This document shows positions 794-42,460 of a stretch of DNA of 64,000 nucleotides, piece after piece. The notes beneath the pieces were generated by a model that saw nothing but the letters and a program-made list of their open reading frames with translations, did no database searches and was not told the DNA's origin. The stretch comes from Ostrea edulis (taxonomy: Eukaryota): NCBI RefSeq assembly GCF_947568905.1, contig NC_079172.1:50530001-50594000 (forward strand). The letters are read 5' to 3'. A program made the translations under genes and the position numbers. The first letter of the stretch is position 1. Every line of letters starts with the position of its first letter.

Positions 794-1987
794 TTATCTC
801 CTTCTGTCAAATGGTCTCTTGGAATTAGTTTGATGCTGTGGATAAGTCCTCTTTCCATTGGAGTTAAATCTTCCTGTATAAGGTGACCGTGTCCTTCTCT
901 CATCTCTACTCTGCTGCTCACCTTGACATCTAATAGATCTTAATATATCAGTTTGTACCTGTATCTCGTGGTGGATATTCTGTAGAGTACTCTGAATATG
1001 GAACATGTGGCTCATCATGTCGTACATCAGTCGCGTTGGCGATTTGGACGTTCCTCTCTTGCGTTCTCCTGGCGACTCGGATCTTCCTCTTTGCTCAGCT
1101 GAAGTTTTCTCACTGGATACACCTCCAGCCTCAGGTTGCTTGAGATCACCTGCCTTTGAATTCTCTCCGTGTTTCCCAGATTCTGGCTTCTTTGGTTCTG
1201 GAATTACTGCTACCTCCACAAGAAGACTGGAAGGGGACGTAATAGCTGAAGTTCCTCCCTCTGTCTCCTAATCCAGAAAACCATAGTACTGCACGGGATC
1301 TTGAAGTTCCAGTAAATCTGGAAAGGTAAAGATGTTGCTGGGGGAAGACATGGGCAGCTCAAAGGAATGGTTCAGATGGACGGCTGGAGCAGATACAGGA
1401 ACAGGTACTGAACCAAGTGGAACGGAAATCTGCTGAACAGGTTTGGGCGAATACCTACTATTAACAATAGAGACAGTGGGAGTTGAGCAGGGAGTAGAAG
1501 TAGGAGCAACTGATGAAATCGGCTGGAATGCTGAAGAAACCCCCGACTTCCCTGAGTGGAGTCCAGAGGGCAGGGGCGAAGCCTTATTTTTCCCTGCAGC
1601 TTCCTCTCGAAGTCGTCCGAGCCAAACCTGGTGAGACTCCTCTTTGCTCAACCGTTCAAAGTGAACATCCTCTACAGCCTTAACTCCATCCCTGTTTCTG
1701 TGAAGATATTTTGCATCTGGTTCAGGATTCTTCCCATACTTAAGCAGGGACTCCCTTGCCTCTCTGTGCTTTGTATAATTCTTCACATGCTCCTCTAGTT
1801 TTTCTTCCTCATCTGTCTGAAAATGACAAAGGGAGCAGTAATAAGGAATGACATCCAGAGGGATATGGTATTTGTAGACATGACTGATCACATATCGTTT
1901 TTCTCCAACTTGCTTATTACACAACAGGCACTTGTATGCTCTCCCTCTTTTCAGCAACTCTCTGTTGATCAAAGGGCTTAAACTCAA
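794..1987 (-). pseudogene. Accessory ORF (~397 codons) with two N-terminal C2H2 zinc fingers, S/P-rich middle and C-terminal helical segment; one in-frame TAG at 1268-1270
   Basis: ORFs 1268..1987 and 794..1219 are in the same frame, separated by a single stop. Motifs are CLLC-X12-H-X4-H and CSLC-X12-H-X6-H. A splice-acceptor-like TTAATATTTTTCAG lies immediately upstream. Confidence 0.75.
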
Positions 1988-2086
1988 AGCTGAAAAATAT
2001 TAAGGAAAGTTAAATTCTTCAGAGAATTTTCTCGGGTTCTTCTTGGATCTTCTTGTAAACAAATGACCGATATCAGTCAAATACAC

Positions 2087-2409: not shown

Positions 2410-3657
2410 TCAGCCAATGAAAGGTTTCATCTTGTCATGATGTATGACCTTTTGTTTATGACTGCTAAGGCTCTTTACTTTGTAAGTGAGATCTGAGAGT
2501 CTCTGTAATACAATGCATAGGCCCCAATACCAATTACTGAGTTTCCCTGGATCTGATTCATTGAGAACCCATACTTTGTCTCCTGACTTGTACTGGTTGA
2601 GAAAAGTTTTCATATTGTAGAAGTGTCTTTGTCTTTCAGTAGAAGTTTTTAAGTGCTTCCTAGCTATTTCATGAGCTTGTTGTAAATGATTTCTGAGGGT
2701 CTCAATATATTCCACATAATCTGCCACAGGGTTATCATCCTTGGTTATACTGCCAAAAATGATTTCACTTGGAATACGAACTTCATGGCCTAGCATCAAG
2801 AGATTGGGAGAAACACCTGTAGATTCATGAACACTAGATCTGTAAGCTGCACCAAGGCATCCTAAGTACAAGTCCCATTCTGTTCTGTCTTCTTTGATAT
2901 AACTCTTTATCATTTTTATTAATGTTCTATTAAATCTTTCTGTTTTACCATTACACTGGGGATGCCGAGGTGTAGTCCTAGTTTTCCTTATTTCAAGAAG
3001 TTCACACAACTCATGAAAAATACTGTAAACGTATTATATTTGGCGTGTACGATATTTGGCGGAAATCGTTTTTTCAACAAGTTAGCGTAGATTTGATTTA
3101 GCGCATTCCTGAATTACTTTAAACATCTAGATTTACGGATGGCATTTAGCGATGCACTTGATTTAACGGAAGCTACGTTCCGCCAAAGGCGCTAAATAGA
3201 ATACACAGCCAAATGTAATACATTTACAGTATTGCTTTCATAATTGCGACCTTGGTCTGAATGTATAGACTCTGGACATCCATAACGACCTATTACCTCA
3301 TTAAATAGGATCCTAGCTGTCGTAGCTGCTGTTTGATCTGGGAGAGGAAAAATCTCAACCCAATTAGTAAAATGATCTGTTGCTGTTAAAATATATCTGT
3401 TTCCTCTGGGAGTCTCTGGCAATGGACCCAATATATCAGTGGACAACCTGTCCAGAGGGGCCCCTACAGTCATATGTCCTAAACCTGCCCTTGGTTTGTG
3501 ATAAGGTTTCCTGTTTTTCTCGCAGACCTCACAACCTGACACATGAGCTGCAATATCTTCTTTCATTTCGAACCAGAAGAAATTCCTAGAAACTTTGTCT
3601 TGAGTCTTTTTCCTACCCAGATGTCCACTTAGTAAATTTTCATGGTTACTTCTTTTA
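2410..3657 (-). pseudogene. Gypsy integrase, split by a MITE
   Basis: HxxxxxC..C zinc-binding region, LSTDILGP, SDQGRNYES, PQCNGKTERFNRTL and a GPY/F-like tail ending HHDKMKPFIG. Removing 3023-3229 plus one TA restores GRNYESNIFHELCELL. Confidence 0.92.
3023..3229. mobile_element. TA-target MITE (207 bp) inserted in integrase
   Basis: Termini CTGTAAA...TTTACAG, TA duplicated at 3021-3022 and 3230-3231. Excision restores the integrase reading frame. Confidence 0.9.
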
Positions 3658-7029: not shown

Positions 7030-7380
7030 TTGGGCATTTGGGCTTTACAGAAACCTGTTAAATTAGAAGAGTTAAAACAGAAAACCAAGCTAGTCAAAAG
7101 TGGACTGGACAAACCTGGGGAGCTTACTGCATTAGAAACAGGGGAAGTACAAAAGTTTATTCCCCGAAAGCTGTTTCTATCGAGTATAGAAACCTTTAAA
7201 CTTGCACCCGATACCCAGGATTCCACCAAGAACAAAGAAGAGAAGACCAAACCCGTGAAACCTTTACCGTGTAGTTTCCTCTGCACCACGGGACTTTCTC
7301 CTGCGAAAGAACCCTGTGTGGTGAGACCGTGGAGAATATGGAGGGATCGCATTCTCAGTTTTTTGGGATTTGAAAGATAG
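7030..7380 (+). pseudogene. 5'-truncated paralog of the orphan ORF at 36743-42210
   Basis: LQKPVKLEELKQKTK...WRDRILSFLGFER* aligns by eye with the C-terminal third of the 36743 ORF. Homology continues through the 3' flank to the (GT)n at ~8041. Confidence 0.85.
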
Positions 7381-7424
7381 ACATTCTGAAAAATATGAAG
7401 ATAGAAACGTGATTTTAAAGGATT

Positions 7425-7840
7425 TTTTGTACTTTACAAACGTATTATGTGTGTTCATGGTGTTCTGATATGTTGGTACTTTACAAACGTATTATGTATG
7501 TTCATGGTGTTCTGATATGTATTATTCAAGGTGTTCTGATATGTATTATGTATGTACATGGTATTCTGATGTGTATTATGTATGTTGATGGTATTCTGAT
7601 ATGTATTATGTATGTTGATGGTGTTCTGATGTGTATAATGTATGTTCATGGTGTTCTGATGTGTATTATGTATGTTGATGGTGTTTTGATGTGTAGTATG
7701 TATGTTCATGGTGTTCTGATGTGTATTATGTCTGTTCATAGTGTTCTGATGTGTATTATGTATGTTCATAGTGTTCTGATGTGTATTATGTATGTTCATG
7801 GTGTTCTGATATGTATTATGTATGTTCATGGTGTTCTGAT
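7425..7840. repeat. 30-bp tandem repeat (TGTATTATGTATGTTCATGGTGTTCTGATA), ~13 copies
   Basis: Directly visible period; a related 47-bp array lies at 42259-42460. Confidence 0.92.
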
Positions 7841-8040
7841 TTGGATTAAAGTTGTTTTCACACTGTTATACCTCTTGATTGTCCTCATTCTCACTCTAAA
7901 AACTGTGAAGCATTATGACGTCAGCACATTCATCTTAATCTAGTTAAGAAATGGTGTATCGGAGGCGTGCACAAAACAAAACCTTCCAAGTGATTAATAA
8001 ATATAGAACGAGCAAAAATCACTATTTTGTGTATGACATA

Positions 8041-8072
8041 ATGTGTGTGTGTGTGTGTGTGTGTTTGTGTGC
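8041..8072. repeat. (GT)n microsatellite
   Basis: Directly visible. Confidence 0.9.
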
Positions 8073-9164
8073 GCGCACGCACAAATATTTATCTATGTGT
8101 ATGTTAATATGTTATTCAGCTTAAAGATCAGCTACATTTCTTTACTTGGACATATGAGGTACAGTAACTCCGTCCTTCTTCATAAAAAGATAGCCAACCA
8201 GGTGTTGTGCTATAGCCTCTACTAGCTAGTTTCCATATTAAAATGATTCAGTTAAATAATGAAACAATTATTAACAATTAATTTTTTGATCAACACTATA
8301 CTTTAGTTACCCTTGACGTACAATATATAACTATGTGACGTTAATTTAACATGCATGTTCTATACATAGACGAATGATTATATTCAAATATCAATTACAT
8401 CCAAAGAAAGCAATTGGGACAGAATTCTCTCAACTTAAAATTACATTCCTTTACGTCACGTGTTTAAGATAAATCAGCTAAATTGGCTTATGCTTTTGAA
8501 CGCGTAACAAAGACTGAAACTGACCTTTTTCTCAAGGTCACCTGCAAAACAAATGGATGAATGTAGCTATTATGAATGTTTATAAAGGAAAAACAAAAAT
8601 ACAACCAATTTCAGTGAAGATAACAGAAATCAGTATCCTTGAACAAGTGAATGTCTGGTCTATTACAAACGCCACTTTTCATAATCATTACATAACACGC
8701 AGAGTTCACCAATCAGTGGGTGAAAATTTAAAGTTTTTCATTCTTGATAGATTTTGGAAATTTTAGCTTCCGATCTGTTATAATAAACAACATGCATAGT
8801 TTATGAAACAGTTATTTCAAAATTGACTTAGGTGTTTGAGAATTATTGAAGTTAGTTTTTCAAGTTTCCTCCAAAAGATGAGGTTCTTGATGCTCATGGG
8901 GTTCCTTGGTTAGAGCGTTTCCATGGTGATCAAGAAATCGTGGGTCCCGTTTTCACCCCTACCTAGGCCGTGGCATAAATGAGATAGTGACTGCACTTTC
9001 GCATAATTAAAGTGTCGAATTCTCATTTTTCCCCACATAAATCTTCCAAACCGAGTTACTTTGTTGCACCAGGCATTCAAAAAAAATTATTGATAAAGAG
9101 GTAAAATATAATACAACATTTTCTCGTCGCCTTCACATTCAGGGGTCTTTATTTTCAACGATCG

Positions 9165-9393: not shown

Positions 9394-9610
9394 TGTAGTA
9401 TCTGGGGAGTCTTCCACAGTACGACTTGTTTATTCCCCGATTTGCAGAGGAGATACTTCCGGCAGCACGGGGAGATTTCCCGCGGTTATGGACTATGTCA
9501 GACGTGTAGAGGACCTACCCGAAGCTGAGACCGACAGCAGGCAGAACTGTTAAGTCCGCGGCATCCATGTTTTATGTAGATACACTGTAATAAATATTAT
9601 AGATACTTTA
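9394..9610 (+). repeat. 5' LTR (217 bp)
   Basis: Starts TGTAGTA; diverged direct repeat of the reassembled 3' LTR. Confidence 0.85.
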
Positions 9611-9611
9611 T

Positions 9612-9629
9612 TGGCGCCCAACTCGAGGC
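9612..9629 (+). promoter_or_regulatory. Primer-binding site, tRNA-Lys(CTT)-like
   Basis: TGGCGCCCAACTCGAGGC vs the canonical Lys1,2 PBS TGGCGCCCAACGTGGGGC; first 11 nt identical. Confidence 0.75.
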
Positions 9630-11158
9630 CGCGGACTTACCTGGGTGGGTTATTGCATTTTTTTGCTTTTCCCAGTCACGTTGTTAGGTCGCTATATTGG
9701 CGGGTAGTGTCAGATGTGGGATTTTTCTTTTTTCTACTCGGGAATAGATTTGGATTTTTGTTATTAACAGGGATTTTTTTTATATTAATTACTGAATGAA
9801 TTTAGACATTCCTTGATTGTATTTTTGATACATTTTTTGTGGATTGTTTACATGTGAGATGGATATGTCTATAGATGACGTGTTATGCGGGTTGGTCTTG
9901 TGCCCTCACCCGGACAAACCTGTGGTCACACGGAATGTACCCGCGTACTCCCAGGTATCCCCAGGCTGTGGCGAACGTTATTTCACGCCGTCGTTGCCTT
10001 CCTGTTTGAGGGAGGGGGGGGGGGGTAGGTTAAGGGATGCCACAGGTGGGGAAGTGAGGTTTACTGGCATGCAGTTTAGCTCTAGGGAGGGTGACAGGTT
10101 TTCTGGCACGCAGTTTTGCTCTGAGGAAGGTTATAGCTTGGATTAGGATATACAACGTAGGTGTGACTTCCCTGGGAATTTAATGGGATTAGATTCGCCC
10201 AAGAAAGGGTCTGGACATGACACCCCAGGGTTTAGCGATTGGGATAGGTGGGAGGAGGATTTCTTGTCCCTTGGTGGGGGCTCAGTTATTCCTGATGTCC
10301 CGGTAAGGCCTACTCCAGTCAAGGGGGGTGGTCATGTACCCAGCTCTGGGAGTCTCCCGGAATATCATACCCCTGCTCTGCATTCCTACACTCCAGTGGC
10401 AAGGAGGTCAGCCCCACTCCCTCATTCATGGGTTGATGATCACGCCCTTGGCCAGCTTAGTCAGGGTTTGCCCCAGCTGGGCTTGGGTTCACGCTTGCAA
10501 CACCCCACTCCTGGACCGTATTCCACAGTTGCTCCATTTTCGGAGCCAGGGATTACTACGGAAATTGCCAGTCCCCACAGCCCAGCCAGGGCTATGATAT
10601 GCTTACAGGTTCCCCAGTCTCGCATGCCTACCCATCCCATGTGCAATACCCTTGGGTTGGGGGGAATGCCCCCCCCCCCCCCCAGCCTTTGATACCTCCC
10701 ATGCCTGGTGGTTACGCTAGCACACATATGCGCTACCCTACCATGATGACTCCTCCCTATCAACAGCAGGGGCCTTTCACTTAACCTGGTACCACGGGTT
10801 GGGGGATGAGAGGGTAGCGTAGCGCACATTCAACCCCAGTTAGGTGAACCAGAACGACACACACCATTCTCTGGGCATTCTGCCCAGGGACTAGCTCCAG
10901 CATCTCGCACCATGTACCAGGTCCCCCAGTACTCTTGTATAGGGGAGCAGTCGATGAGCTTCAGTAGAAACGCACCCCCAGTACAAGGATTTGCGGTACG
11001 ATGGAAATTCTAGCTGGAAATCCTTCCTGCACAAGTTTATTCGCCTGGTCCGCAGCCGAAAGTGGACTGAGATGGAACAACACGATCAGTTCTGCCTTTC
11101 ATTGGAGGGAAAGCAAGCGACTACTGCACCCTGTTGATGGAAACAGACCAGTCTCTCT

Positions 11159-12256
11159 TTGGCTGACATCATTGGGCGGTTTGAGAAACGTTTTGGGTCA
11201 TCGGCACCAGGTTTCACGCACCAGTTGAACTTTCAGTCAGCATCACAGGATGTGGGCGAGTCATTGCGACATTGGGCTGACAGGGTGCTTACCCTGGCTA
11301 CCCAGGCTTTCCCGTCTGTGCCGGATTCTCATGTGTATGCCATCCCACGGTTGTGCTACGGTGCTGAGGATGGAGACGCAGGACTTTATGCCCTGGATGG
11401 CCAGCCCAAGACAGTAGCGGAAGCAGTCGACCGAATGCAGAAATATCAGCATTCACGACAGATGAAGTCATCCAATCCCATGAGGGATGTGAGGCAGGTA
11501 GCTCAGGTTGAAGCTCTCAATCCTGACAAGGAGGTCAAGGAGATGCGTCAGCGCCTTGAGGAGCTAGAGAAGGAAATCCGAGGGCGGACCCTCTCTCTGA
11601 GACCTTCATCACCATCATCAAACGGCAAGCGACAGCCAGCAGGCTGCTTCAAATGTGCGGCCATGGGACATTTTAAGTGGGAATGCCCGGAATGGCGGGG
11701 GAAAACTGAGGCGAACCAGGGCCAGGGGACCAAGGTCAAGCCCAGGGACGGTCAAGACACACAACCGCGTTCATCAGAACCAAGGGGGCGGGGAGCCAAG
11801 ACCCACCAGCCACAGTTTAGTAGTGGAGGACCTACGCAGCGGGAAGTCAGAATGTTGACTCCAGAGCGCTCCCCAGTTAGGCCGGGGCCGTGCGATGATC
11901 GCACGGGGACAAGTCGGTTTGCAGGAGGACACAGGCAGGAGCCCTCCTGCATGCGCCGCTCCAGTAGGGGCACACTCCAAGTGAGGTTCAGGGAGGCACC
12001 CGAGGAGGAATCCGAGGACTGGGTAATAGGCTGGGAGGAGGACATGTACGAACCCTCTCCCAGGGAGATGTCCCCAGGATTCAGGCTCCCTGCGGATATC
12101 ATGGTGCCGGAACTGCCGGGATTTGGAGCAGTGAACCAGGGGAATAGGGAGGACTTTCCACAGAATTCGGAGGACTTGTCGGATCTGGAGCCCTCGCCTG
12201 TTCAGGAAGAGGAGGCCTGCGTGGATTTCGCGCCCAAGCCTAGTGAGTGCCCGTAG
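11159..12256 (+). CDS. Gag (capsid-like region plus CCHC zinc knuckle)
   Basis: QDVGESLRHWADRVLTLATQAFP capsid-like segment; CFKCAAMGHFKWEC = C-X2-C-X4-H-X4-C. Confidence 0.88.
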   Translation: MADIIGRFEKRFGSSAPGFTHQLNFQSASQDVGESLRHWADRVLTLATQAFPSVPDSHVYAIPRLCYGAEDGDAGLYALDGQPKTVAEAVDRMQKYQHSRQMKSSNPMRDVRQVAQVEALNPDKEVKEMRQRLEELEKEIRGRTLSLRPSSPSSNGKRQPAGCFKCAAMGHFKWECPEWRGKTEANQGQGTKVKPRDGQDTQPRSSEPRGRGAKTHQPQFSSGGPTQREVRMLTPERSPVRPGPCDDRTGTSRFAGGHRQEPSCMRRSSRGTLQVRFREAPEEESEDWVIGWEEDMYEPSPREMSPGFRLPADIMVPELPGFGAVNQGNREDFPQNSEDLSDLEPSPVQEEEACVDFAPKPSECP

Positions 12257-12262
12257 CCAGTT

Positions 12263-13507
12263 ATGGCACAGGATCAGCCCAAGGAGGAATGTGGGCTGGG
12301 GGTGGTCAGCGGCCGAGCCGAGAGCGGAACAGTGGACATGCCATTCCGGCATGCGGGAGAATCCCGTGAAGAATCGCCTGTGTCAATAGGGCAGATACGC
12401 CCAACCACCGGACTCATGGTTGAAATGGTAGTCCAGGGAGTGAGACTACAGGCAGTGGTTGACGCTGGGGCAGAGATGAGTGTGTTGTCCACCCGGGTCT
12501 ACGAGGAGCTTGACTCCAAGCCTCTCATCAAACAGCACGTGACCTTGGTTCAGGCAGGGGGAAATTCCAGGATGAGGGGCTTCATCATTGGCCCTGTGGA
12601 AGTCCGCCTTGGAGACACATAATATAATGTTGATCTGTATGCGTGCCCCCTGCAGGACGATATGTTGCTAGGCATGGGTTTTCTCCATCAGCAGAAGGCT
12701 CATTTAGACCTGGAGCATGTCACCATGACCTTGGGAGAGGAGAAGGTCCCTTTGACGTTCCGCCGCCCAGGAGGGGTACAGCAGGCCCAAGTTTCAGTAA
12801 CGAAGTATATCTGGGTCCCAGTTGCTTCAGTCGTCCTATGCCCTTGTCCTTTGGATAAGGAGTTGGAAGACTTTGTAGTCAGCCCTCAGATCAAGCAGAT
12901 CTCGGACGTCTTATTGGTGCCGCACACTTCTGCTAGGGAGAGAACGTTGTTGACCAGCATTGTCAATACCTCAGATGAGGAAGTGTCTATCTCCGGAGGC
13001 AGTGCGATAGGATCAGCATTGGAGGCCGAACCATGGGTGCTGGCACCTGACTTGGTCATTGAGAACGTGTACAGTGTGGACCCCCACACTGAGGCAGGGA
13101 CTAAGCTTAGCACATTTACAGCAAGAGTTGATGTTGCTCCCGTAGCTTGCCCTGGAACTTGGTCGAATTCCAAGGAGGCCACATTAGATGGTGGGGGAGA
13201 TTTCCCTCTGGAGCCGACTAACATTGCTGAGGAAATCAGTGTGGTTGAATCCCCAGCTGTTGGCCTTACTCGATGTGCGCTTGGCGAAGGTGTTCCGGAT
13301 GGTTACAGTGGCCCTGTTAGCGATGCGTCATGGAACTATGTCTCCCGAGAACTTCTCGGGTTCCCAGGTTGGACTCGTGGGGCGAAGTTTTACCTCAAAA
13401 TGGATCTTGTGGGACATGGCCCTTTCAGAACCGGAGTCCGTCAATTCAGAGGTATCAGGTTGCCTTGGCCCCCACCTGGATTTAGAGCTGTTGGGAGGAT
13501 TTATTGA
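12263..13507 (+). pseudogene. Retropepsin-like protease plus linker, in frame with gag, with internal stop at 12620-12622
   Basis: LQAVVDAGAEMSVLS active-site-like motif and DMLLGMGFL flap motif. ORFs 11159, 12263 and 12662 share one frame. Confidence 0.85.
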
Positions 13508-13901
13508 TCCTTTTCAGCTAGGGGTGTGCGACCCAGGGCTCGCCCTGACCCACACCGGTTGGGAGTAGATTAGTCCCAGTCAGTTTTCTTCGGGGCATTT
13601 ATCCGGAGCTTTCCTACCAGAACCCTTTCCGGCGTCCTCGGACAGTTCCTCCGAGGGGGCGTGTCGCGCCCACCTTGACCATTGGTTGGACCTGTTTCTC
13701 CGTCCTTCAGAGAAAATGGGGGGGGGGGGGGTTAGTATCTGGGGTCTTCCCCAGTACGACTTGTGTATTCCCCGAATTGCAGAGGAGCAACTTCCGGCAG
13801 CACAAGGAGATTTCCCGCGGTTATGGTACATGCCAGACGCACAGCAGGACCTACCCGAAGTTAGAGACCGACAACAGGCAGATAAGTTAAGTCCGTGGGA
13901 C

Positions 13902-36742: not shown

Positions 36743-37537
36743 ATGCCAATGGAAAATCAAAAGAAGATTTCTGGAAATGTTTTCCATTCTGTGGCAGACG
36801 ACAATGATTTGAAAAATGGCTTTGTACCTTATGAACAGGTTAAGGACACCATCGCGAAAATTGAAATCCTAAAAACTGCTAATGCAAATGTTTCATCATT
36901 CCTGCCGTCATGGGCTGATGATGAATATTTCATACAGTTACACAAACCGAAGAACATAAAGAAGGGAAAGGTGTTTGAGACAAACGTGGAAACTGGAGAG
37001 GCAGTGCTGGAGAAAGAGTCACAAGTTAAGACAACCATTGAGAGCGGACGGGCAATACTGAATGCAGAGAGCGGACAAATCACACATTCTGTTCCTGAGA
37101 TCCATGGCGAAAACCTTGATGTGAAATCAGAGAATGTTGCAGCATATATCTTGAGCATTGTCGAGAAGGCATGTGCAATAGTTCTCCAAGATATAACAGT
37201 CCAGAAACTAGATCAGGATGACGGCAGTGTTGTGGTAGAAACAAAAATTGTGAACACTTCGGATGCAAACCAGGAAATGGAAAATTGGTGTTTACAGAAA
37301 CCTGTTCAATTACATGTACAAGAGTTAAAACGTAAAACCAAGCCAGTCAAAAGTGGACTGGACAAACCTGGGAAGCTTACTGCATTAGAAACAGGGAAAA
37401 TACAAAAGTTTATACCCCGAAAGCTGTTTCTATCGAGTATAGAAACCTTTAAACTTGTACCAGATACCCAGGATTTCACCAAGAGCAAAGAAGAGGAGAC
37501 AAAGCCCGTGAAACCAAGGCCTTTACCGTGTAGTTTC
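36743..37537 (+). pseudogene. Intronless orphan ORF, N-terminal 265 codons, interrupted by the Gypsy insertion
   Basis: Open frame up to the TSD; resumes in frame at 42109. The paralog at 7030-7380 shows the uninterrupted junction (PLPCSFLCTTG). Confidence 0.8.
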
Positions 37538-37687
37538 TGTAGTGTCGGACTATTACATGTACGAATTGTTTAATATGCATGTATGTTCGAGTACGAGTTA
37601 ATAAAATCCTAGTTAGTGTTGTGAGAACACGTGTGTGTACTGTTTTGATTAAATTCGGGATTACACAGAAAATCCAACGATTCTACA
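37538..37687 (+). repeat. 5' LTR (150 bp)
   Basis: No mismatch found by eye against 41954-42103. Confidence 0.96.
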
Positions 37688-37689
37688 TC

Positions 37690-37702
37690 TGGCGACGAGG
37701 AT
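37690..37702 (+). promoter_or_regulatory. Primer-binding site complementary to tRNA-Ser(GCT)
   Basis: TGGCGACGAGGAT, 2 nt after the LTR; complementary to ...ATCCTCGTCGCCA. Confidence 0.8.
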
Positions 37703-37734
37703 CAAAAAAAAACTTTACATGACTGTTTAGCGAA

Positions 37735-39456
37735 ATGGCAACGGTCATAATGACGGATTTAGGTGGAATACCTACATTTGATTGCCACGGGGATCAAACT
37801 ACAGTCGGTGTGCGATGGACAAAATGGCGGCGCGCATTCGAACTTTTCATAGCAGGAAAAGGCGTGAAGGATGCTGCACAGAAGAAAGCATTACTGTTAC
37901 ATTGTGGTGGGATGGAGATGCAGGACATTTTCTTTACGTTTACACTGGAAGATCCAGGGGAAAATCAGACTGTGTACGATGTCGCGATGAAGAAATTAGA
38001 CGCCCATTTCAAACCACAGGTAAATGATGCATATGAGAGACATTTATTTCGCGCTATGAAACAGTCCCAAAATGAAACAATAGATCAATTTGTTACAAGA
38101 CTGAGACAAAAAGCTGAATTTTGTGGATATGGCACGAAAACGGATGAGAGTATCAGAGACCAAGTCATTGAAAAATGTAGCTCCTCTGTTCTGAGACGTA
38201 AACTTTTAGAAAGGGGTGAGGATCTCACACTCGAAAAATTACAAGCAATCGCTAGAGCTCTTGAAGCAAGTGAAACACAGGCGTTTACCATGGAAAACAT
38301 AAAATCTGAAGTGAATCACGTGCAAGTTAAGGGGTCACGTTCATGTAAAGCGTCAGTAACAAAGAAACCAAGTTCAGATAAACGATGCTATAGATGCGAT
38401 CGAGAAGGACATAACCAATCAAGTGACAGATGTCCAGCAAAAGGGAAAGAGTGTCACAAGTGTGGACGTACAGGTCATTTTGCCAAATGTTGTAAGTCTG
38501 GAACTGTGAATAAACCAACTAAGGGGCGCAGTAGGGACCACAATCAAAGGAATTCACACGTTAGATTTGTAGACACTGCTGGGAACCAGGAAGATGACCA
38601 TGATGATGAATACGCATTTTCGGTGACAGAATTTTCAAAGCAGCCAAGTATCACTGTACAGCTGGGAGGAGTGAGTGCAGAAATGATTATAGACTCAGGC
38701 GCAAGCTGTAACGTTATAGACAAGTCTACATGGGAAATCCTGAAAAACAAAAGAATCCAGTGTCAATCACAGCGATCAAGTAAGAGATTATTTTCCTATG
38801 GGAGTCAAACACCGATGAATGTCATTGGAACTTTTCTTGCAACTATCTCTGTGGGGTCTAAGTCCGAAGCGGAGTTCATTGTCGTTGAAGAGAAACTAGG
38901 ACCAGATGTTCAAGTGAATACAGTGAGTGACAGTATATTTACAGAGTACAGCGATGTATTTCAGGGATTAGGAAAATTGAAAGATTTCCAATTAGAAATA
39001 CCGATTGACAAAGAAGTCACACCAGTAGCACAACCTTTGAGGAGAGCACCTTTCAATCTGAGGAGTCTCATAGAGAAGAAACTGGATGAATTGGAGAACC
39101 TGGATGTGATCGAGAAAGCAAGCGGACCTACTCCATGGATATCACCTGTAGTCGTGGTACCTAAGAAGAATGACATCAGACTTTGCATTGATATGAGGCA
39201 AGCCAATTCTGCGATCATTCGTGAGAGACACCCGATTCCTACAGTCGATGAGGTTCTTCATGTTTTGAATCAGAGTACCATTTTCTCGAAACTGGACATA
39301 AAATGGGCGTTCCATCAAGTAGAGCTCTGTAAAGAATCGAGACCAATCACAACTTTTGTAACACATAAAGGATTGTATCGATATAAGAGACTCATGTTTG
39401 GAATAAGTTGTGCTCCTGAAATGTACCAAAGAGTGATACAACAAGCTCTCGAATAA
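37735..39456 (+). CDS. Gag (two CCHC knuckles), protease and N-terminal RT; ends at a premature TAA
   Basis: CYRCDREGH, CHKCGRTGHFAKCC, IIDSGASCNV, TPWISPVVVVPK, CIDMRQAN, LMFGISCAPEMYQR. The frame continues after the stop as CEGVRNIFDDIVVHG. Confidence 0.93.
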   Translation: MATVIMTDLGGIPTFDCHGDQTTVGVRWTKWRRAFELFIAGKGVKDAAQKKALLLHCGGMEMQDIFFTFTLEDPGENQTVYDVAMKKLDAHFKPQVNDAYERHLFRAMKQSQNETIDQFVTRLRQKAEFCGYGTKTDESIRDQVIEKCSSSVLRRKLLERGEDLTLEKLQAIARALEASETQAFTMENIKSEVNHVQVKGSRSCKASVTKKPSSDKRCYRCDREGHNQSSDRCPAKGKECHKCGRTGHFAKCCKSGTVNKPTKGRSRDHNQRNSHVRFVDTAGNQEDDHDDEYAFSVTEFSKQPSITVQLGGVSAEMIIDSGASCNVIDKSTWEILKNKRIQCQSQRSSKRLFSYGSQTPMNVIGTFLATISVGSKSEAEFIVVEEKLGPDVQVNTVSDSIFTEYSDVFQGLGKLKDFQLEIPIDKEVTPVAQPLRRAPFNLRSLIEKKLDELENLDVIEKASGPTPWISPVVVVPKKNDIRLCIDMRQANSAIIRERHPIPTVDEVLHVLNQSTIFSKLDIKWAFHQVELCKESRPITTFVTHKGLYRYKRLMFGISCAPEMYQRVIQQALE

Positions 39457-39607
39457 TGCGAAGGAGTTAGAAATATATTTGACGACATTGTTGTGCACGG
39501 AACATCTGTGGAGGAACATGACGCTAGGCTTAGAAAACTTCTGGACAGGATTAGGGAGAAGGGACTCACCTTAAACAAAGAAAAGTGTAAATTTCGGATG
39601 TCAGTTT

Positions 39608-41713
39608 GTGTTCATGGGACATTTACTGTCTGCCAGAGGTATAGGACCTGCGAAATCGAAGGTGACAGCTGTAAACGATGCTAGACAACCGGAAACAGCA
39701 TCTGAAATTCGAGGATTTCTGGGGCTAGTCAATTACAGCTCGAGATTCATCCCAGATCTGGCAACGTTATCCGAGCCGTTGCGTAGGTTAACGAGGAAGG
39801 GAGTTCACTTCAATTGGGGCCAGGAACAGGAACATGCTTTCGAGGAATTGAAACGCAGACTCACAAATGCACAGACTTTAGGATACTATGATCCAAAGGC
39901 AGAAACAATAGTTATCACCGACGCAAGTCCTGTTGGCTTAGGCGCAGTCCTCGTACAGAAACAAAATGGAGATGAGCGTGTGATATGTTACGCAAGTAGG
40001 ACTCTATCGGATGTTGAAAAAAGATACTCGCAAACGGAAAAGGAGGCATTGGGCATAGTCTGGACATGCGAGAGATTTCACATGTACTTATATGGAACAG
40101 AATTCGAATTACGCACTGACCATAAACCTTTGGAATTCATCTATTCCAAGAAGTCAAAACCTTGTGCTAGAATTGAAAGATGGGTGTTGAGACTACAAAC
40201 CTATACCTTCAAAGTGAAGCACATACCTGGAAAACAGAACATCGCAGATTGTTTGTCTCGTATGCCATCCAAAGAAGTTGATCCATTTTTTGTTGAAGAC
40301 TCTGAGACACATGTAAAATTTGTTGCGGAGACATCTACACCAAATACAATGTCTACAAGACAAATCGAGCGGGAATCGGATAAGGATCCAGAACTGGTAG
40401 ATGTTCGCGAGTGTATTCAGACTGGCAAATGGCATAACATACAGGAAAAATTGTATTTGACTGTGCGTGAAGAATTGTGTTGCATTGGAAAACTAATTCT
40501 CCGAGGGACCCGAATTGTTATTCCGACTGAATTGCGAACACACGTTTTGGAATTAGCTCACGAAGGTCACCCAGGCATTGTAGTCATGAAGAGGAGATTA
40601 CGAGCGAAAGTTTGGTGGCCAGGCATAGATCGTGAAGTGGAGAAGTTTGTCAAAACCTGTCATTCATGTCAACTGGTTAGTCAACCACAAGCACCTGAAC
40701 CGATCAAAACTACGGAATTACCAAATGGACCATGGCAACATATTGCTGTTGACCTCATGACACCATCGTTACCATCAGGAGATCATCTTTTTGTTGCAGT
40801 GGACTATTACAGCAGATACATTGAGGTGGAACACATGAAAAGTACAACTACAGACAAGATCATAAGGAGTCTGAAGAGGATGTTCTTAACGCATGGACTA
40901 CCGTTAAGCATCTCAAGTGATAATGGTCCTCAGTTCATATCTCATGAATTCAAGGAGTTTATGACTGAAAATGATATCTATCACCGGAAAACCACACCTC
41001 TTTGGCCACAAGCTAACGGGGAGATTGAACGGCAGAACCGCTCATTGTTAAAACGTATCAAAATCGCGCAAATCGAGAAGAAGGATTGGAAGGAGGAATT
41101 ATCGTCCTACCTAATGATGTACAGAACAACACCACACAGTATAACAGGAGTCAGTCCTTCGGAACTTCTATTTCGACGGAAAATTCGTACTCGTCTTCCA
41201 GGCATTGAAGATTATTCAACTATGACAGACGACCAGGATGTTCGGGATCGCGACTCCGAGAAAAAGGAGAAAGGGAAAATGTATATAGACAATAAACGTG
41301 GAGCTAAGGAGAGTGACATAGCTGTTGGAGATTCTGTGTTGTTGAAACAGAAGCCAGGAAACAAGCTCACACCTACGTTTGAAGCAGAACCGTACCATGT
41401 TACAGAGAAAACAGGAAACAGTGTGACCGTTGAATCACCAAGTGGAGTTTGCTACAAGAGGAATACCACTCATCTTAAGAAATTTCACGAGCGAGCGAAT
41501 ACGTTTACGAAATCCACAGTTGACGATAAAATTGATGGAAAACGGATCGAAACAAACATTCCGAACTGTGAAACGGCGAAAAGAATTTGTGACACCAGTG
41601 CTTATACTACGCGTCCGACCGAAGTTCGTGACACAAGTGTTCAAATTACGCGTCCGATCCGAGAACGCAAACTTCCAGACAGGCTTAAAGAATACGAAGT
41701 GTCATTTCAGTGA
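39608..41713 (+). CDS. RT C-terminus, RNase H and integrase (701 aa), out of frame with upstream pol
   Basis: TDASPVGLGAVL, YSQTEKEAL, TDHKPL, AHEGHPG..C..C, SSDNGPQF, PQANGEIERQNR motifs. Confidence 0.95.
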   Translation: MFMGHLLSARGIGPAKSKVTAVNDARQPETASEIRGFLGLVNYSSRFIPDLATLSEPLRRLTRKGVHFNWGQEQEHAFEELKRRLTNAQTLGYYDPKAETIVITDASPVGLGAVLVQKQNGDERVICYASRTLSDVEKRYSQTEKEALGIVWTCERFHMYLYGTEFELRTDHKPLEFIYSKKSKPCARIERWVLRLQTYTFKVKHIPGKQNIADCLSRMPSKEVDPFFVEDSETHVKFVAETSTPNTMSTRQIERESDKDPELVDVRECIQTGKWHNIQEKLYLTVREELCCIGKLILRGTRIVIPTELRTHVLELAHEGHPGIVVMKRRLRAKVWWPGIDREVEKFVKTCHSCQLVSQPQAPEPIKTTELPNGPWQHIAVDLMTPSLPSGDHLFVAVDYYSRYIEVEHMKSTTTDKIIRSLKRMFLTHGLPLSISSDNGPQFISHEFKEFMTENDIYHRKTTPLWPQANGEIERQNRSLLKRIKIAQIEKKDWKEELSSYLMMYRTTPHSITGVSPSELLFRRKIRTRLPGIEDYSTMTDDQDVRDRDSEKKEKGKMYIDNKRGAKESDIAVGDSVLLKQKPGNKLTPTFEAEPYHVTEKTGNSVTVESPSGVCYKRNTTHLKKFHERANTFTKSTVDDKIDGKRIETNIPNCETAKRICDTSAYTTRPTEVRDTSVQITRPIRERKLPDRLKEYEVSFQ

Positions 41714-41953
41714 ATAGTGATCAAGTGTATTGATGATTCATTGATGTGTACATATGTTTTGCTATTATGTGTTTTCATAACATTTTACAAGTGTTTACAA
41801 TGTAAATGAAATCAAGTTTCTTTTGACTGTTTTGGTAATTATACAATTTGAAACTATCTCAGTAAGTGGAGAACTGTTTTGACTTTGAGATAATATTTTC
41901 TAGTCAGTTCTAGTCAATTGTTTGTGTACTTTCATTCCAAAGAAAAGGAGGGA

Positions 41954-42103
41954 TGTAGTGTCGGACTATTACATGTACGAATTGTTTAATATGCATGTAT
42001 GTTCGAGTACGAGTTAATAAAATCCTAGTTAGTGTTGTGAGAACACGTGTGTGTACTGTTTTGATTAAATTCGGGATTACACAGAAAATCCAACGATTCT
42101 ACA
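41954..42103 (+). repeat. 3' LTR (150 bp), preceded by PPT AAAGAAAAGGAGGGA
   Basis: Direct repeat of 37538-37687. Confidence 0.96.
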
Positions 42104-42108
42104 GTTTC

Positions 42109-42210
42109 CTCTGCACCACGGGACTTTCTCCTGCGGAAGAACCCCATGTGGTGAGACCGCGAAGAACATGGAGGGATCGCATTCGCAGATTTTTGGGATT
42201 TAAAAGATAG
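42109..42210 (+). pseudogene. C-terminal 33 codons of the orphan ORF (LCTTG...WRDRIRRFLGFKR*)
   Basis: In frame with 36743-37537 once the element and one TSD copy are removed. Confidence 0.8.
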
Positions 42211-42258
42211 ACATTCTGTAAATTATGAAGATAGAAACGTGATTTTTAAGGATTTTTG

Positions 42259-42460
42259 GTACTTTACAAACGTATTATGTATGTTCATGGTGTTCTGATA
42301 TGTTGGTACTTTACAAACGTATTATGTATGTTCATGGTGTTCTGATATGTTGGTACTTTACAAACGTTTCATGTATGTTGATAGTGTTCTGATATGTTGG
42401 TACTTTACAAACGTATTATGTATGTTCATGGTGTTCTGATATGTATTATGTATGTTCATG
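42259..42460. repeat. 47-bp tandem repeat (~4 copies) containing the 30-bp unit seen at 7425-7840
   Basis: TACTTTACAAACGTATTATGTATGTTCATGGTGTTCTGATATGTTGG units. Confidence 0.88.

Follow-up and report, generated by a model that had tools for sequence, protein, structure and literature searches.

A decayed copy of a conserved zinc-finger third gene downstream of pol in a Gypsy element of Ostrea edulis

The stretch of DNA considered here (the window) covers 64,000 nucleotides of the flat oyster Ostrea edulis (assembly GCF_947568905.1, contig NC_079172.1, positions 50,530,001 to 50,594,000), and its first part holds the remains of a Ty3/Gypsy retrotransposon on the minus strand. Past the pol gene of this element lies a frame of 401 codons plus a stop (1999-794, minus strand), interrupted by a single TAG at 1268-1270. 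The integrase stop codon (2410-2412) is located 420 nt upstream on the same strand. A first-pass annotation, made from the letters of the window, had described a frame of about 397 codons with one TAG some 420 bp after the integrase, two C2H2 finger motifs, an S/P-rich linker and a C-terminal helix, and all of these are present. The remnant of this third open reading frame (ORF3; 1984-794) has lost its start, while the family ORF encodes about 270-400 amino acids (aa). The conserved N-terminal domain of about 125 aa (1984-1601) consists of an RG motif, two fingers, a closing strand and a helix, and it is a compact unit in the structural model. As read from the sequence, finger 1 (1930-1865) has the spacing C-X2-C-X12-H-X4-H, with ligands that are invariant or nearly so among homologues, and finger 2 (1837-1766) has the spacing C-X2-C-X12-H-X6-H, in which H-X6-H recurs in 54 of the 72 homologues that fit the two-finger pattern. 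Further downstream, a C-terminal amphipathic helix (1036-923; limits likewise read from the sequence) is followed by a basic tail that extends to 794. The TAG is private to the window copy; the sister copy L033 reads through it. The comparisons below establish that ORF3 in the window derives from a third gene conserved in one Gypsy clade and has decayed.

Searching the oyster's own genome (G000) with the finger domain gave 46 matches among 138 candidates. These merge to 41 places, and 39 of the 40 places outside the window were fetched. In 30 of these 39 loci pol lies upstream on the same strand, three more have gag, an integrase end or long terminal repeats (LTRs), and six are isolated fragments. 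Where the integrase C-terminus is preserved, ORF3 lies 166-485 nt past its stop codon (23 of 26 loci). Among ten extended copies, nine have ORF3 between two LTRs that are 93-99.9% identical, and three carry unbroken gag, pol and ORF3. The reciprocal search gave a matching picture, with ORF3 no more than 1.5 kb downstream in 16 of the 19 best integrase matches. Hence, the position of the homologues between Gypsy integrase and 3′ LTR, which the first-pass annotation had proposed as a check, is consistent. The assignment to Ty3/Gypsy follows the pol order protease, reverse transcriptase (RT), RNase H and integrase. Intact relatives have LTR pairs with TG..CA ends, 4-bp target duplications and a TGG-starting motif after the 5′ LTR, which we take to be a primer site of the tRNA-Leu type; the LTRs of the element family are 1.1-1.45 kb long and contain internal repeats. 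Since RT identity to the window copy spans about 55 to 93% among the homologous loci, the loci represent many families. In a tree of RT and RNase H (38 rows, built with a quick method; loci with <250 RT residues excluded), all 19 ORF3 carriers fall in one clade (SH-aLRT 100), and RT and finger identities show a modest correlation (rho 0.40, 120 dependent pairs). L056 (G000:C5:65600400-65610300) is arranged differently: pol is missing, gag is broken, two LTRs (98%) are present and ORF3 is an unbroken frame of 281 aa.

The ratio of nonsynonymous to synonymous substitution (dN/dS) was determined pairwise over the first 130 codons of observed copies. It is 0.08-0.42 in 13 of 24 pairs; in the other 11 the synonymous sites are saturated, with dN of 0.28-0.57. 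The finger domain is under purifying selection, and the check on dN/dS suggested at the outset thus came out other than neutral. Contigs from another organism differ in ORF3 at 28 listed sites, of which 18 are third codon positions. The 46 genome matches and the selection on the domain argue that the frame did not arise by chance. Collectively, these data bear out the suggestion that this is a non-env third ORF belonging to the element family, as it is family-wide, positioned between integrase and 3′ LTR, and selected. The contrary outcomes that had been named beforehand (copies lacking the ORF, a single-copy host gene, neutral dN/dS) did not occur. ORF3 is almost certainly real and encoded by the element.

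The copy in the window itself is dead, as judged from an insertion in the spacer, the private stop, frameshifts in pol, the missing 5′ LTR and the small remainder of gag. Of the 420 nt between integrase and ORF3, 152 bp are an insertion (2087-2238) that the sister copies lack; it has short inverted ends and a 5-bp target duplication. The decayed end of gag and pol (7021-2410; protease, RT, RNase H and integrase) carry frameshifts and an insertion at about 3023-3229, and the RT dN/dS of 0.73 between the window copy and its sister L032 matches post-insertion decay. With respect to the insertion at about 3023-3229, it is short, with inverted ends and probably a TA target duplication. Only one LTR is kept. 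Its start lies downstream of ORF3 (504-1, minus strand), it continues past the window edge and is 96% identical to the LTR of L097, and a primer-binding-site-like motif follows it beyond the window at G000:C9:50529459. An unrelated 1.9-kb repeat with a 30-bp tandem array (7044-8977) occupies the place of the 5′ LTR and most of gag.

The 5′ end of the frame needs to be viewed against this background. In the sisters L032 and L033, which are 92-98% identical, ORF3 opens with its own ATG directly after an AG. The first-pass annotation had noted that the window frame has no ATG and is preceded by a pyrimidine tract and an AG ending at 1990 (2008-1990), considered to be a working splice acceptor. 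The description is accurate, but both features are private to the window copy as an arrangement at the start of the frame. The motif ending at 1990 is kept in L032 and L033, where it lies 166 and 143 nt upstream of the ATG, respectively, and the intervening 167 or 144 nt have been lost from the window copy. This deletion (junction at 1985/1984) removed the family's acceptor-like site together with the start codon. Hence, the AG at 1990 adjoins the frame only through a 144-167-nt deletion, and the comparison with L032 and L033 rules it out as a functional splice site; it is a deletion scar. The window copy has no ATG because the stretch that held the start codon was deleted, and the missing ATG is uninformative about the family.

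In intact copies ORF3 has its own ATG. A pyrimidine-rich YAG ends 0-25 nt before this ATG in 17 of 20 representatives (16 from G000 and 4 from other genomes), the background being 0.10 both in the spacer and on the other strand. Because this acceptor pattern is kept just before the start codon, a spliced ORF3 mRNA is likely; it would probably consist of a non-coding first exon, with the donor in the 5′ LTR or leader, joined to a one-exon ORF. The env mRNAs of retroelements are also spliced and have a non-coding first exon. Plant cases of spliced third-ORF mRNA have been described as well (PMC7264820). The earlier claim of a spliced subgenomic RNA therefore stands with respect to the conserved acceptor, but not with respect to a junction, as none of the six joints found in one family, L091 (see below), is in the sense orientation.

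What type of protein does ORF3 encode? AlphaFold predicts a compact domain of 120-130 residues in which both fingers are packed together with the closing strand and helix (mean pLDDT 88.8; with a deeper alignment, residues 11-110 reach about 97). For the intact homologue from L048, the model continues past this domain with a disordered linker, a 51-residue helix (252-302) and a disordered tail. A heptad pattern is present in the tails of 35 of 46 homologues (7.0 in shuffles), basic clusters in 36 of 53 tails (15.5 in shuffles) and RS-like motifs in 13 of 53 (3.3 in shuffles). The linkers of several copies also carry acidic-hydrophobic patches. A hydrophobic 19-residue window scoring >1.6 is found in only 1 of 60 proteins; the proteins thus do not show the membrane segment of env, and an env-like role is ruled out. 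QT motifs, presumably of the LC8-binding type, were considered as a feature of the clade and not retained, as they occur in 15 of 53 tails compared with 9.4 in shuffles (maximum 17). Fold searches gave no PDB match at E 0.001 and no viral match, the best Z being 3.7, which is not evidence of a new fold.

The nucleic-acid-binding domain, the oligomer-type helix, the basic tail and the lack of a membrane segment make it likely that ORF3 is a nuclear nucleic-acid-binding regulator. Which nucleic acid it would bind is less clear. There are three reasons to favour RNA: the acceptor would make the genome RNA intron-containing, the fingers depart from the rules for DNA-binding arrays, and there is a precedent in CERV. 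With regard to the fingers, the TGEKP-type linker of Kruppel-type DNA-binding arrays is present in none of the 72 homologues. The linker between the fingers is 9 residues long in 69 of 72, the H-H spacing of finger 2 is long (H-X6-H or H-X8-H in 69 of 72) and there is no significant fold match to a DNA-bound array. Finger 1 of the window copy fits the classical C-X2-4-C-X12-H-X3-5-H, and its C-H gap varies from 10 to 18 across homologues. The precedent, CERV of the Gypsy-type Cer1 element in C. elegans, is translated from a spliced mRNA. It combines a Cys finger and a leucine zipper with a candidate nuclear localization signal, and is described as needed for export of the genome RNA (PMC10309623). 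In the corresponding scheme for ORF3, a donor in the 5′ LTR or leader would be spliced to the acceptor before the ATG, giving an mRNA in which ORF3 occupies one exon. The product would enter the nucleus and bind the element's own RNA via its finger domain, and it would thereby set the amount of unspliced genome RNA that leaves the nucleus, in the manner of CERV and Rev. A Rev- or CERV-like factor would be expected to have a basic, arginine-rich segment and an oligomerising helix; ORF3 has a basic tail and a heptad helix, the latter a candidate for oligomerisation. That ORF3 acts on the export or splicing of RNA, and not on LTR DNA, is a tentative preference. The reading as a whole, i.e., a decayed copy of a clade-wide third gene whose product is made from a spliced RNA and acts on export of the element RNA, is likewise put forward as a possibility that falls short of being probable.

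Several observations weigh against this reading. Pfam finger matches are all below the cut-offs, RNA-type and DNA-type alike, and the best sequence matches in solved structures are generic C2H2, DNA-binding fingers (CTCF, Ikaros). The tail is weakly constrained (dN/dS 0.20-0.96, 6 pairs). Three of the 22 clade members are non-carriers, two of them truncated or deleted over ORF3. The acceptor test carries an overstated P value, since its starts were chosen by eye and some of the families are related. In seven 5′ regions searched, no sense donor emerged as conserved. A sense junction on L091 was sought in four contig sets guessed to be RNA and none was seen, which is uninformative about its absence. 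Moreover, every junction seen in RNA-type contigs runs antisense, and where such contigs extend over ORF3 they are linked to antisense exons; this coverage therefore cannot be attributed to an ORF3 mRNA.

An action on DNA is nearly as likely, if on the doubtful side: ORF3 would be a transcription factor, dimerised through its helix, that activates or represses its own LTR. Tas and Tax are transactivators of this kind in complex retroviruses. Two tandem C2H2 fingers whose closest sequence relatives bind DNA fit this role, as do the acidic-hydrophobic linker patches and the long, repeat-containing LTRs, and the weakest-level fold matches are led by a two-finger tramtrack-DNA complex (E 0.08). 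On the other hand, the canonical linker is absent, the recognition helix of finger 2 is acidic in the window family, and the modelled packing of the fingers is unlike that in DNA-bound arrays (root-mean-square deviation about 5 Å or more).

The junction data referred to above concern L091 (G000:C1:83440600-83450500), the one family with which RNA-type data were compared. Six joints were recovered from three runs of one study on a related organism (A); the runs were guessed to be RNA, none being on record as such. The joints listed are 1726/2339, 2505/2906, 2995/3336, 2505/3336 and 3493/8083. All six are canonical GT-AG and lie on the strand opposite gag, pol and ORF3. They define an antisense RNA of five exons with exon skipping, the splice sites of which are situated inside intact coding sequence. 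A protein product was considered and rejected, since the internal exons have stops in all three frames and no ATG-initiated ORF exceeds 63 aa. The antisense splice sites are kept in the L091 sub-lineage only and mostly not in the family of the window copy. Between L091 and L065, synonymous sites within the splice signals are kept in 16 of 21 cases, compared with 390 of 761 elsewhere in pol (P about 0.02-0.03). No exon-only DNA copy of the antisense chain was present among 22 matches in G000, which is another organism than that of the RNA runs. The RNA may be a read-through product of a host gene. HeT-A and TART are known to produce antisense RNAs that are spliced and non-coding (PMC2615633), and these, together with the antisense RNA of micropia, resemble that of L091 in having multiple introns, alternative splicing and no long ORF, as far as they are described (PMC2615633, PMC7264820). 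However, HeT-A and TART are non-LTR telomeric elements (PMC2615633), whereas the L091 antisense exons lie inside the intact pol and gag of an LTR element.

The antisense RNA also bears on whether ORF3 is expressed through splicing at all. It is conceivable, though unlikely, that ORF3 is real but expressed from an internal promoter or by internal initiation, with the pyrimidine-AG motif a by-product of the AT-rich spacer or of antisense donors. The ATG of intact copies would be in keeping with this, a perfect antisense donor that is used lies 31 nt upstream of the ATG in L091, and Grande gene23 in plants is reported to have its own promoter (PMC7264820). Against it, the acceptor adjoins the ATG far more often than expected from the spacer background on either strand, and it does so independently in a sister clade of elements, where an acceptor precedes the ATG of another finger ORF in 9 of 9 tested, L104 included.

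This other finger ORF came from the outgroup. The outgroup elements were expected to be without a third ORF, and most carry a different finger ORF in the same slot. In one sister clade (L100, L103, L105-L107, L110-L112, L115 and L116) an ORF of 200-240 aa directly follows pol and encodes C2HC and C2H2 fingers, an acidic patch and an invariant QT motif (QT motifs in 7 of 7). It resembles the ORF3 protein over the fingers only. In G000 it has 142 matches among 150 candidates scored, and it lies within 1.5 kb downstream in 36 of the other 131 integrase matches, with 68 of the 142 matches counted. The finger ORF that follows pol in L104 (2302-3003, minus strand) is of a third kind and resembles ORF3 weakly (hhalign probability 39). 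L101 (1274-3313, minus strand) is a young element with identical 224-nt LTRs and, after pol, a 680-aa ORF that encodes a TatD DNase domain (E 2e-36) as well as a finger-like motif; L114, L108 and L113 are related to it. A search of the literature gave no description of a TatD ORF in a Gypsy element.

The slot after pol thus resembles an exchangeable accessory module, with different finger genes in sister clades. Such a module, one version with TatD, could be expected if the gene took part in a conflict with the host, and a folded domain that is conserved next to a fast-changing tail would agree with this. ORF3 would in that case counter host silencing, or tether the integration complex to chromatin, via protein contacts. 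We consider this improbable, as the ORF3 protein of the clade has no enzyme or chromatin-reader domain and selection on the finger domain is purifying, not diversifying. It could be that the major tRNA-primed mollusc Gypsy clades are "complex". They would each carry a spliced zinc-finger regulator after pol (at least two finger families, with a TatD nuclease added in one clade) and, in at least one case, make a multiply spliced antisense RNA with its splice sites inside pol. Sense regulator and antisense RNA would form a circuit like that of complex retroviruses that has arisen without env. This generalisation is tentative.

Homologues are also present beyond this genome. Among the best 150 results of a profile search against 1.84 billion representatives, 88 were single-stretch matches and the remainder multi-finger proteins. 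The named homologues are from Pinctada, Saccostrea, Potamilus and Gigantopelta (bivalves and one gastropod), any name being attached to 4 of the 20 homologue clusters looked up, and a search of a protein atlas gave unnamed clusters as its best matches (score 0.95-0.97). A word-index search with one protein gave no match among 11 candidates. Integrase followed by ORF3 is seen in 5 of 8 metagenome contigs; the other three have <1 kb upstream. Public genomes list some homologues as host genes, and this, together with the rearranged state of the window copy and the other repeat that brackets it, might suggest a host zinc-finger gene or passenger fragment that merely adjoins the element or was once captured by the window copy, which is highly improbable in view of the pol/LTR position, the clade-wide presence and the selection. 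For G000, a host gene is ruled out by the position downstream of pol, the enclosure by LTRs and the selection. Two homologues, P0035 and P0194, are mislabelled in public sets: in Gigantopelta aegis one is fused to a BTB gene model, and the other, probably host DNA, is placed in a Sedimenticola genome bin.

How does ORF3 relate to the extra genes of other retroelements? Like ORF3, CERV is a non-env accessory protein of an animal LTR retrotransposon with a finger and a helix; the two are compared by description and no homology is claimed (PMC10309623). CERV shares exons with gag and has 517 aa; a G-protein-like domain and a putative C4 finger are described for it, and homologues outside nematodes are said to be lacking (PMC10309623). 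In contrast, ORF3 lies after pol as a one-exon frame that begins with its own ATG and encodes two C2H2 fingers; its splicing and export function are predictions. The env of errantiviruses and the env-like sense ORFs of plants are, as described, positioned like ORF3 on the same strand between pol and 3′ LTR with an acceptor-like site before them (PMC7264820), but ORF3 has zinc fingers and a basic tail in place of a membrane segment. The antisense additional ORFs of plants (Grande gene23, RIRE2 and Retand) are, like ORF3, conserved family-wide after pol and proposed to encode a nuclear regulator; they differ in being antisense with their own promoter, while ORF3 is sense with C2H2 fingers (PMC7264820). 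Finally, sORF1 and sORF2 of the MDG1-group are non-env accessory ORFs of animal Gypsy elements, some downstream of pol as is ORF3, but they encode membrane fusogens of about 110 aa with an unrelated anatomy (PMC11952523).

The mollusc Gypsy elements that an RT/RNase H classification places in the MolGy and Mag clades are probably the same elements as those discussed here (PMC6238403, PMC8556966, PMC9679248); the RT tree contained no MolGy1-18, Mag, CsRN1 or Cigr-1 reference sequences. The main text of the mollusc and annelid Gypsy surveys uses neither "ORF" nor "zinc" (PMC6238403, PMC8556966). We found no description of a C2H2 third ORF of mollusc Gypsy elements in the literature, where supplements and Repbase Reports may hold one. 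Extra ORFs after pol are already known as a kind, and our survey suggests that a C2H2 third gene across mollusc Gypsy clades is new. Animal Gypsy elements without env have so far been treated as gag-pol only, and mollusc surveys classify by RT alone. Through the ORF3 clade, CERV, the only tested case, is joined by a large natural collection of candidate retroelement regulators, and the question whether Rev-like control has arisen repeatedly before env becomes open to testing. The clade likewise accounts for a class of "hypothetical C2H2 proteins" found among mollusc gene sets, which are transposon genes.

The surroundings of the element in the window contain further repeats. The permuted Gypsy piece lies between two 93%-identical copies of the 1.9-kb repeat (window 7044-8977 and G000:C9:50527434-50529418). 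The window contains a third copy, at 37317-42449, which is interrupted by a 4.4-kb insert with a 150-bp duplication. A second LTR-type element, on the plus strand, lies at 9400-13840, with a 99-nt repeat at 9406 and 13741 and a gag with a zinc knuckle at 11138-12256.
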